In this document: in pieces, positions 4,735-62,287 of the stretch
Numbering within the stretch: position 1 is the stretch's first letter
Layout: each line of letters begins with the position of its first letter
Source of the DNA: Promethearchaeota archaeon
GTDB lineage: Archaea > Asgardarchaeota > Lokiarchaeia > Sigyniarchaeales > SOKP01
Length of the DNA: 64,000 bases
Assembly (NCBI GenBank): GCA_016839765.1
Contig: JAEOTP010000016.1
Span: 1 to 64,000, forward strand
Reading direction: 5' to 3'
Program-made: the position numbers and the translations under genes
The notes under the pieces: model-generated
Databases searched by the model: none
The model's input: the letters and a program-made list of their open reading frames with translations, nothing else
Told to the model about the DNA's origin: nothing

Positions 4735-4868
4735 GGCTCGGTTCGTATAGTGGTTAGTATTGGGGACGATTCTTGAAAAATATTCAAGAATCCCCACTGT
4801 GAATCCTTAGTGATTGGGGGAATTTCTCTCCTTTCGGGGAAACGGGGGTTCGATTCCCCCACCGAGCC
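4735..4868 (+). tRNA. tRNA-His(GUG) with encoded G-1 and two BHB introns (4768-4797 at 32/33; 4811-4841 in the variable loop, 45/46)
   Basis: Acceptor G-1+GCTCGGT/ACCGAGC+C73; D arm GTAT..GTAT; T arm GGGGG-TTCGATT-CCCCC; after splicing, anticodon arm GGGGA-CTGTGAA-TCCTT and variable loop AGAC. Confidence 0.9.
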
Positions 4869-4987
4869 CTTCTTAATCTATAATTTCTATTTTTTGTTTT
4901 AAATTTAAGTATAATTACATAAAATGGAAGATTAAAATCTGTAGAATTATTTTCTTATATAACTGATACTAATTAATATTTGTAATT

Positions 4988-16143: not shown

Positions 16144-17440
16144 TTAAATCTTCGAGGCGATAAAATCTATGATATCAACAACTTTAATTTTTTCTTTAAC
16201 CATAGTATCCATTTCTTCATAAGCGTTGTTTAAGTTATTTATGCAAAATGGACAGCTAGTTGTTAAAATTTGAGCACTACTGTCAACTGCTTCTCTAATA
16301 CGTTCTTTAGAGATTTTAACCGCTAACTCTGGAAATTGGCTTTTTACCCCACCACCCGCGCCACAACACCAAGCATTATTTCTATTTCTCTTCATTTCTA
16401 TTAATTCAATTCCTGGAATATTAGTAATGACTTCACGAGGTATATCATAAAGATTCATGTGGCGACCTAAATGGCAAGGGTCGTGGTAAGTTACCTTTAC
16501 TTTTTCTCCTTCTTCCTTTTTAAAAGGAATTTGATTATTATTAAGCAATTCAATTATTATTTCTGTTATATGCTTTACTTCAAATGGTAATTTTTCACCT
16601 AATAATTCAGGATAATCTTTTTTCCACGTTCGATAACATCCTGCACAAGCGGTAAAGAGAGTCTTAGCACCCCTTTCCTTGAATTCTTCAATATTATGTT
16701 TAATCGTTTCAGTTAATGATTTTTCATCACCAATACGTATGGCAATTGAGCCACAACACCATTCATCTTTGGTCATTGCTATTTCTTTTCCTGCCGCTTT
16801 TAAAATTTTCATCATATTTTTTAATGTTTCTACCTGTCTTAAAGGTATACTACATCCCCCAAAAAACATTAGTTCTCCCTTTTCCTTAATTTCGGGAAAT
16901 TCTTTTATCCAATCGAATTTTTCATCTATATCCTCCCCATATGGATTTCTCATCTTATCATCGTTCATATATTCGACTAAATCACTATGTCTTTCAAGAG
17001 GAGCAAAACCAGCTTCAACCAAATCTTTTCTTAATGCATCCCAAACTTTAACATGATCAATCCAATTACACGTAGGGAGGGTAATATATTCATTTTGAGA
17101 CATATGACATACTTCAGTACAATTTCCACATACCGAGCATTGATATACCCATTCTGCAAGCTCTCTACTCAATGGGATTTGTCCTTCTAATATACTCTTG
17201 AGGACATTCATCCTCCCTCTTGAAAAATATAATTCAAATCCCTCATCTTCCATTGCCTCTTTAACGGGACATGTCAGATATCTCCCAACAACAGGTCGAA
17301 TGGCGTAACCACAATCTCCACAACCCAGGCAGGGTTTACGATCGATATCATAAACCTTTCTGCGATCATGGATAATTTCCAAAACCTATACAAGAGAATA
17401 TGGCTTTCCATTCCTTTTTTAGATGTTTTAATTCACTCAT
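16144..17440 (-). CDS. HdrD/GlpC-like Fe-S oxidoreductase (ferredoxin-like + two CCG domains); two exons: 17440-17388 and 17326-16144, 411 aa spliced
   Basis: Spliced N-terminus MSELKHLKKEWKAIFSCMGCGDCGYA...CP aligns with the paralog at 42171 (LKELEKEIYKCIHCKACRFA); WCCG, ACAGC, YHDPCHLGR, WCCGAGGG, TSCPFC. Confidence 0.88.
17327..17357 (-). other. mRNA BHB intron B (31 nt)
   Basis: AGGUUUAUGAUAUCGAUCGUAAACCCUGCCU; 9-bp outer helix UCCAUGAUC/GGUUGUGGA, central helix GCAG/CUGC, bulges AA^A and CU^G, 10-bp inner hairpin with AUCG loop. Confidence 0.85.
17358..17387 (-). other. mRNA BHB intron A (30 nt)
   Basis: AGGUUUUGGAAAUUAUCCAUGAUCGCAGAA; central helix UUGU/GCAG, bulges AU^A and AA^G, inner hairpin GGUU.UGGA/UCCA.GAUC. 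Confidence 0.8.
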
Positions 17441-17450
17441 ATTTTTCACA

Positions 17451-18314
17451 TTAAAATATATAAACTAGTTTTTCACTAATTTTCCATAATTTCGTTTGTA
17501 GAGATTCATCATAAGTCAATTTGTGTGATTTTACAGGTTTACAGTTCTTAAAATATTTTCCCGTAATTCCTTCCACTTCGGGCGATGATGCGAGATATAC
17601 GGAAGTTCTTGCCGCTTCTTCTGGGCTTTTTGTCAATGGTGATATTAAAGAGAGAAAAATTTTGGAACGTTTTTTAGTTGGAGCTGTCATTTTTGTTCTT
17701 GCATGACCTGGATGAAGTGCATTTACAGTTACACCAGTTCCATTTAATCTACGTGCCAATTCATATGTGAATAGTACTAACGCAAATTTAGCATTTGCAT
17801 ATGCTTTTTGAGAAGAATATTTTTCCTCAGACATTAAATCATCAAAATTTATTTTAAAATAGAGATGAATATTTGATGAAACATTTATAATTCGGGAAGG
17901 AGCGCTGTTTTTAATGACATCAAGTAAAGAATTTGTTAATAAGAAATGTGCCAAATAATCGACTGCAAATGTGCTCTCATATCCATTTTCAGTTTCTATT
18001 CTTTTTCTATTAAAGATACCGGCATTATTTATTAAAACATGTAAATATTTGTAATTCTGTTTGAATTCTTTAGCCACATTTTCAACTGATTTTAAAGAAG
18101 CTAGATCTGCGATTAAAAGATCGATTTTTTCATTACCTGATTTATCTTTGATCTCATTTTGTGCTCTTTCTGCTTTTTCTCTATTTCGACATATCATTAT
18201 GATATGATATCCCTTTATTGCTAGTTGCATGGCGGTTTCTATCCCAATACCAGCATTGGCTCCCGTAATCACACAAAATCTTTTGTTAGACTTATAATTT
18301 TTGTTAATCATCAT
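17451..18314 (-). CDS. Short-chain dehydrogenase/reductase (RDH/WWOX-like)
   Basis: TGANAGIG, NNAG, YANAK, HPG. Confidence 0.92.
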   Translation of the reverse strand: MMINKNYKSNKRFCVITGANAGIGIETAMQLAIKGYHIIMICRNREKAERAQNEIKDKSGNEKIDLLIADLASLKSVENVAKEFKQNYKYLHVLINNAGIFNRKRIETENGYESTFAVDYLAHFLLTNSLLDVIKNSAPSRIINVSSNIHLYFKINFDDLMSEEKYSSQKAYANAKFALVLFTYELARRLNGTGVTVNALHPGHARTKMTAPTKKRSKIFLSLISPLTKSPEEAARTSVYLASSPEVEGITGKYFKNCKPVKSHKLTYDESLQTKLWKISEKLVYIF

Positions 18315-61873: not shown

Positions 61874-62059
61874 GAAATTATCAAGGTTTTCTATTTTTAA
61901 AAATTATAAGTTTAAAAACCCTCTAAAGAATTTAAAAATTATTAGTACATTGTATAAGGATAATTAAAAATAAATAGAATTTAAGATTTTTAAGTATACA
62001 AAACTAAGATAACGCTATTCCAAGTTCTAAACTCTGAAACTGACATCCCTTTTTTGAAT

Positions 62060-62163
62060 GGGAGGGTGGTCTAGCTTGGTATGATACATTAGCTTGGTTC
62101 TTTCAAACTAAATCTAATCGGCTGGGGGCCGAGTGGTCGGGGGTTCAATTCCCCCCTCTCCCA
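62060..62163 (+). tRNA. tRNA-Pro(GGG) with non-canonical 30-nt intron at 27/28 (62088-62117)
   Basis: GGGAGGG/CTCTCCC-A acceptor; after splicing CTCGG-CTGGGGG-CCGAG anticodon arm; GGGGG-TTCAATT-CCCCC T arm; relaxed BHB (TGAT/ATCT, bulges AC^A and AA^T, TTAG/CTAA). Confidence 0.9.
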
Positions 62164-62287
62164 TCAACTTTTTTTAAAATATTTTTCTATAAATAACAAT
62201 TATTAAATTATCGATTGGTGTAACTTTTTAAGTATCATTATGTTATTTTTTAATTAAAAACCATTTTTATAAGAGAGTGATTCTAAC

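Follow-up and report, generated by a model that had tools for sequence, protein, structure and literature searches.

We find that an HdrD/GlcF-like Fe-S protein gene of a Promethearchaeota archaeon is interrupted at its 5' end by two short inserts that lie end to end. We read them as BHB introns, A and B, of which B would be removed first, in an order that, as far as the evidence goes, is not regulated. From sequence comparison and predicted folding we put the probability of this reading at about three in four. The gene lies on the minus strand of the 64,000-nucleotide stretch analysed here (the window; contig C67 of a 3.3-Mb genome with 30% G+C, whose relatives are labelled Promethearchaeota or Lokiarchaeota), near an FAD-linked oxidase gene. 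A short-chain dehydrogenase gene (17451-18314, minus strand) sits between the FAD-oxidase and Fe-S genes; the latter two are directly adjacent in several relatives, and the short-chain dehydrogenase gene also occurs in L136.

Anatomy of the interrupted gene

Most homologs of the Fe-S protein are ~411 aa long and begin MSELKHLKKEW..., and the same sequence is encoded here from an ATG at 17440, in another frame. Joining 17440-17388 to 17326-16144 on the minus strand gives a 411-aa protein with no internal stop, the length found in intronless relatives. The 61 nt left out fall between the AT and the G of Met18, within the first CxxCxxC of the protein, exon 1 ending with the first Cys of that motif. 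Every element quoted in the first-pass annotation (GCAG, UCCAUGAUC, the arms and CUGC) is present on the minus strand (Table 1).

Table 1. Features of the interrupted Fe-S protein gene, in window coordinates
Feature	Position	Strand	Remarks
Exon 1	17388-17440	-	starts at ATG 17440; 17 codons and the AT of Met18; corresponds to the N-terminal part of intronless homologs (~410 aa)
Exon-1 strand UUGU of A's central helix	17390-17393	-	pairs with intron bases -6 to -3
Putative intron A	17358-17387	-	30 nt; hairpin BHB with weak (relaxed) motif; site common to single introns of relatives
A 5' arm	17378-17386	-	inner helix of A, 8/9 pairs
TTG start of gene callers, presumably false	17380-17382	-	412-aa prediction through the 3' half of A and B
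A 3' arm UCCAUGAUC	17364-17372	-	partner is the A 5' arm or the exon-2 start (outer helix of B)
Common GCAG	17360-17363	-	in the central helices, 3' strand for A and 5' strand for B
Putative intron B	17327-17357	-	31 nt; canonical BHB at A's 3' splice site; fold z -4.5; two-sided changes
B inner arms	17356-17347 and 17342-17333	-	inner helix of B
CUGC	17329-17332	-	3' strand of B's central helix; Watson-Crick with A's GCAG
Exon-2 start	17317-17325	-	3' strand of B's outer helix, 9/9 pairs
Exon 2 of the HdrD/GlcF-like Fe-S protein	16144-17326	-	Pfam Fer4_8 and two CCG domains

The segment 17372-17317 folds unaided into a complete BHB around B (-23.6 kcal/mol, z -4.5, 0/200 shuffles), with a 9-bp outer helix, four Watson-Crick central pairs, two 3-nt bulges where exon and intron meet, and a 10-bp inner helix. 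The predicted motif of A comprises a central helix between exon-1 UUGU and GCAG, an inner helix with 8/9 pairs and only two adjacent outer pairs. Judged by these predicted structures, B is a canonical BHB and A a relaxed, HBh'-like motif. Cutting after the second base of each bulge would give Cys-Met-Gly-Cys, as in the intronless homologs, in 56/56 alleles. A and B abut with a zero-length exon between them, the 3' site of A and the 5' site of B being one bond, and A contains an in-frame UGA (17368-17366). The 5' arm of A differs from the exon-2 arm at one base. The first-pass picture of two stacked BHB introns, with B built on A sequence and inserted at A's 3' site, is upheld by this anatomy.

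We scanned the whole genome for stacked BHB pairs that leave a joined open reading frame when taken out. Of the 38 candidates this locus ranked first; the others looked like A+T-rich noise, and the scan yielded no second convincing pair. The corresponding scan for single mRNA introns was noisy and filtered too strictly to give counts; its top candidate, outside the window on the minus strand of G000 contig C46 (offset 28679, counted from the contig end), is a 30-nt BHB insert that joins 325 and 246 codons. The Fe-S locus has no Rfam match, and a group I/II twintron was rejected, the inserts being 30 and 31 nt long with no Rfam match and no ribozyme core.

Two tRNA genes of the window also bear inserts. 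The first (4736-4869, plus strand), which the default scan did not detect, can be read as a tRNA-His(GUG) in which a 30-nt BHB hairpin intron immediately precedes the anticodon and an apparent second insert follows the anticodon stem. The second (62059-62165, plus strand), an Rfam tRNA match that ARAGORN wrongly assigns to Leu, can be read as a tRNA-Pro(GGG) whose anticodon stem has a 30-nt hairpin intron at its start.

The host genome encodes an EndA alpha subunit with the Tyr-His-Lys region and a specificity loop, a second, His-less subunit, and RtcB; the two EndA genes lie on contigs C72 and C82 and that of RtcB on C25. EndA alpha aligns with crenarchaeal-type structures, loop included, and the loop of Asgard EndA has been linked to relaxed motifs (PMC5829648). 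Judged from its genes, the host thus has an EndA able to cut relaxed motifs and the RtcB ligase. We infer splicing itself from the sequences, and the comparative support is strong: A and B are very probably real BHB introns.

Intron alleles in relatives and their origin

Among genomes, metagenomes and assemblies we observed 12 intronless, 41 single-insert and 15 double-insert distinct junction alleles, all interrupted or uninterrupted at one bond; the alleles are kin, and counts over them are not independent tests. Insert lengths range from 29 to 34 nt in singles and from 56 to 63 nt in doubles, many not being multiples of 3; the singles whose length is divisible by three (30 nt) contain a stop in 13/13 cases. 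The single inserts are diverse (mean identity 57%), and each consists of a hairpin and, after it, a four-base stretch paired with exon 1. Positions 2-4 of this central helix are paired with the exon-1 strand in 41/41 single and 15/15 double alleles. All doubles carry one family of A, with an identity of 82% for A and 60% for B. The A-only relative that the first-pass annotation had recommended looking for exists: L071 has a stand-alone intron 83% identical to A.

Both exons of the double alleles are under purifying selection (exon 1 pN 0.054 vs pS 0.62). Ser16 is encoded by TCN, the source of the pairs adjoining A's helix, in 32/32 alleles with an intron and in 3/12 without; these alleles are kin rather than independent, and the count covers unbiased sources, the metagenome set being left out as selected with a TCN-containing pattern. 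Gene callers mis-start intron-bearing alleles in protein databases (MQKGCG..., LQKGCG..., MEIIH...), and these N-termini are usable as probes for more introns.

In the exon-2 tree the intron states are interleaved with strong support, the sister pairs including L101 (double) and L084 (an unrelated single), L049 and L117, L125 and L138, and L078 and L068. L084 and L101 differ at 13 positions within ~53 nt either side of the junction and at 9 in the other ~1,090 nt. Alleles whose coding sequences are 1-2% apart can hold either unrelated single introns or the double. The window allele and L003 have identical copies of exon 1 and cassettes that differ at one base; their second exons differ at 193/1,190 bases. 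From the interleaving of 0-, 1- and 2-intron states and the sharp tracts of difference, we conclude that the junction region is exchanged between lineages by recombination and that the second intron is dispensable, as far as sequences can tell. Sharp recombination tracts are centred on the intron site in the comparisons of L084 with L101 and of L001 with L003, a pattern suggestive of gene conversion, with no homing endonuclease involved, as the means by which intron alleles spread. Genome G045 holds two copies of the gene, L089 and L099, one with a single intron and one with a double; they could be paralogs or bin contamination.

B must postdate A, as judged from sequence, because B has no motif without A. 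The alleles fit both a single early gain of B, after which A was under a double constraint, and several gains on a permissive A. A donor search of the genome found no copy of A or B beyond the reversed-sequence background. As a duplicate of A, B scored above shuffles in 7/13 alleles but not above other single introns at the site, and the proposed likeness of B to A is no greater than that of B to those introns. Nor did a local-duplication origin of A hold up: singles match the exon-2 start at 2.9/9 bases vs 6.5/9 in doubles, and the higher match in doubles is expected if the 3' arm of A must pair with both partners. The AGGUUU start that the first-pass annotation had pointed out is common to both inserts here (17387 and 17357) but is not conserved, B starting AAAUA, AGAUU or AUGUU in other doubles. 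The UGA in A was considered as a selenocysteine codon and rejected, other alleles having UAA; a decay of A's hairpin caused by B was likewise rejected, since the A-only L071 has the same mismatches.

Order of removal

In 15/15 doubles, B's four bases are paired with the last bases of A at positions 2-4, exclusively by Watson-Crick pairs in 14, and GCAG/CUGC is replaced by GCGG/CCGC in L099 and L125, a compensatory change. The inner helix of B has two-sided changes in six of nine pairs and 98.9% of cells paired, a paired count that 0/500 shuffles reach. The corresponding test for the fold of A among doubles is reached by 179/500 shuffles, A barely varying there. Exon 1 would be B's neighbour if A left first and is also the partner for a one-step excision of 61 nt. 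Against exon 1, position 4 of B's four bases (next to the 5' bulge) is mismatched in 15/15 doubles; the same position is paired in 41/41 singles. In the window allele CUGC forms just two G-U pairs with UUGU.

Predicted folding points the same way. In the precursor of the window allele the predicted probability is 0.78 for the central helix of B and 0.002 for that of A; the latter rises to 0.24 once B is gone, similar to singles, and the former falls to 0.000 once A is gone. The comparison of conformer energies that had been proposed as a check favours B's helix by 4.7 kcal/mol in the window allele and favours it in 14/15 alleles overall (range 0-7.8), L078 and L086 having two nearly equal folds (0.0 and 0.6), with the reservation that nearest-neighbour energies are approximate for BHBs. 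For the duplex of A's 3' arm with exon 2 the mean energy is -5.9 kcal/mol among doubles and -2.5 among singles. When the flanks are extended, the best predicted fold holds A's own hairpin and B's central helix together, without the outer helix of B; relative to it, the complete B motif costs +2.1 kcal/mol, the relaxed A motif +4.8 and the complete A motif +12.4. Since this fold keeps both, the decisive either/or element in these models is GCAG (UUGU vs CUGC) and not UCCAUGAUC. The claim of mutually exclusive folds thus stands for the partner of GCAG and falls for UCCAUGAUC. The near-identity of the 5' arm of A and exon 2 would let the outer helix form by strand exchange.

As had been claimed, removal of B from the window allele leaves an intermediate with the in-frame UGA, and removal of A leaves an RNA that is frameshifted; the latter, we find, also stops three codons later. 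We found no other register in which excision of 61 nt or of B restores the frame. B before A is the sole productive route that we could construct and also the favoured fold. Whether either motif can form depends on whether the other intron is still there or gone, and because B's helix pairs with A in every double and fails against exon 1, we infer, with good confidence, that B is removed before A, as the first-pass annotation had proposed. A point against this order is that A, transcribed first, could be cut co-transcriptionally. B keeps three pairs with exon 1 in L063, L101, L049 and L051, where A-first removal, on the modelled pairing, may not be an absolute dead end. In L051 (935-1015, minus strand) B is 27 nt long and lacks a stop; its A-first product would keep the frame, gain 9 residues and have the CxxCxxC rebuilt, and is possibly no dead end.

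In the mechanism that we propose, two protein-spliced BHB introns lying end to end in an mRNA would be cut by an (alpha-beta)2 EndA and their exons joined by RtcB. In the full transcript the GCAG at the end of A would pair with the CUGC of B, and EndA would remove B first; GCAG would then be free for exon-1 UUGU, and A would form a weak motif like that of the singles and be cut. Exon joining would yield the 411-aa Fe-S protein, either via a ligated exon1-A-exon2 RNA with the in-frame UGA or directly after the third cut. The first-pass annotation had routed splicing through that UGA-bearing intermediate, which is possible but dispensable: since one bond serves as both the 3' site of A and the 5' site of B, one ligation after three cuts could be enough. 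Once B is released, the unligated 5' piece may itself be the substrate from which A is cut, in which case the UGA intermediate need not accumulate. Removal of A first would be a thermodynamically disfavoured dead end. The order would be set by the place where B landed, the 3' splice site of A, and kept by purifying selection, and the A+B cassette would move between lineages by homologous recombination.

The first-pass annotation had also raised a regulated RNA switch, in which temperature, ribosome traffic or a protein would shift the balance of A and B folds between B-first and A-first removal and thereby set the enzyme level. The two folds do compete for GCAG, the 5' arm of A and the exon-2 start are similar enough for easy strand exchange, A is more conserved in doubles than B or the single introns are, and two alleles have near-equal fold energies. 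However, the 61 nt amount to just two hairpins with no visible sensing element, and we found no two comparably populated states conserved across relatives: the A-first form is predicted at ~0.2% at 37 C in the window allele and lower at 20 C. The need to pair with several partners explains the conservation of A. Close relatives carry 0, 1 or 2 introns, the stacked arrangement is absent in most and many are intronless, and the exchange of an unrelated single for a double between L084 and L101 also marks the device as dispensable. It is unlikely that the stacked pair is a regulatory device in which competition for GCAG partitions transcripts between B-first splicing and nonsense products, and just as doubtful that this competition is biased by temperature, by the passage of ribosomes along the 17-codon exon 1 or by how much EndA is available.

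Removal without a fixed order, or in one step, also appears improbable. A permissive EndA would then cut the three bonds in any order, or take out 61 nt at once, and pairing of exon 1 with exon 2, which is indeed predicted around the cassette, would hold the ends for RtcB. The loop of Asgard EndA fits such permissiveness (PMC5829648), and the relaxed motif of A can form in the precursor at the cost given above. A one-step BHB, however, would depend on UUGU/CUGC, where 57% of the pairs form over all alleles and one forms in none of them, and it lacks an alternative frame-restoring register; a free order would require a cut at B's 3' end with no predicted motif whenever A is absent.

That the protein is made from unspliced RNA is very improbable. 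Translation would start at the TTG at 17382, a Cys of B (P-C-L-G-C-G-D-C) rebuilding the CxxCxxC; gene callers predict this frame, which runs open over 412 aa in the window allele and in four related ones. The same TTG frame, however, has a stop or no Cys in 8/13 doubles, the changes in B are mostly non-synonymous yet keep its base pairs, exon 1 is under purifying selection, and the Cys codon follows from the need of CUGC to pair with GCAG. A pseudogene, whose loss ~25 related CCG genes in the genome might make tolerable, or an assembly artefact can be dismissed, the same site being interrupted in dozens of independent assemblies by diverse, structure-keeping inserts between intact, selected exons.

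Significance and known systems

At one codon, the locus offers a natural set of alleles from Asgard archaea with 0, 1 or 2 introns. It indicates that an mRNA can tolerate the arrival of a new intron precisely at a splice junction already present, presumably through ordered cutting, which bears on how BHB introns arrive and points to splice sites or splicing intermediates as targets. The 61-nt substrate, with its natural compensatory variants, is directly testable with recombinant EndA. Gene callers truncate or mis-start such proteins and lose or fake an Fe-S ligand. If the regulatory reading were true, the locus would be an instance of tRNA machinery carrying out alternative, regulated splicing of an mRNA in eukaryotes' closest prokaryotic relatives.

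In an incomplete coverage of the literature we found nothing on BHB introns in Asgard mRNA or on abutting BHB introns in any mRNA. Within the searchable literature, cbf5 is the only archaeal mRNA with a BHB intron in its coding sequence; its splicing in Crenarchaeota is backed by cDNA (Yokobori et al. 2009, PMC2738675). As in cbf5, a short BHB or relaxed-BHB intron lies in coding sequence at a functionally important codon, the predicted cut follows the second bulge base, EndA is hetero-oligomeric, and gain and loss are patchy. Unlike cbf5, for which one intron has been described, there appear to be two abutting introns with a common helix strand here, in an Asgard metabolic gene whose splicing is predicted from sequence. 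What seems new is the abutting, interdependent arrangement of BHB introns in an Asgard mRNA.

Nested multi-intron archaeal pre-tRNAs are spliced in an obligatory order (Sugahara 2007; Tocchini-Valentini 2009), and, as far as they are described in PMC3978253, they resemble the present case in that one BHB becomes available only after another intron is removed, by the same enzymes. They differ in that the host here is an mRNA, the exon between the introns has zero length, the wrong order would give a nonsense mRNA, and the dependence would run both ways, B needing A and A being masked until B is gone. A census of heavily interrupted Asgard tRNA genes (bioRxiv 10.64898/2026.10.13.758758) covers tRNA only, and the words 'mRNA', 'nested', 'tandem' and 'stacked' are absent from it; it concerns the same lineage, with repeated gains at BHB-competent sites and an (alpha-beta)2 EndA, and no donor was found for those introns either. 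Organellar twintrons and tandem group I introns (PMC8393795) share the stacking of intron on intron and an ordered or ratchet-type removal, and have been discussed as possible switches; they are large self-splicing ribozymes, whereas the inserts described here are 30-nt hairpins that would be spliced by proteins.
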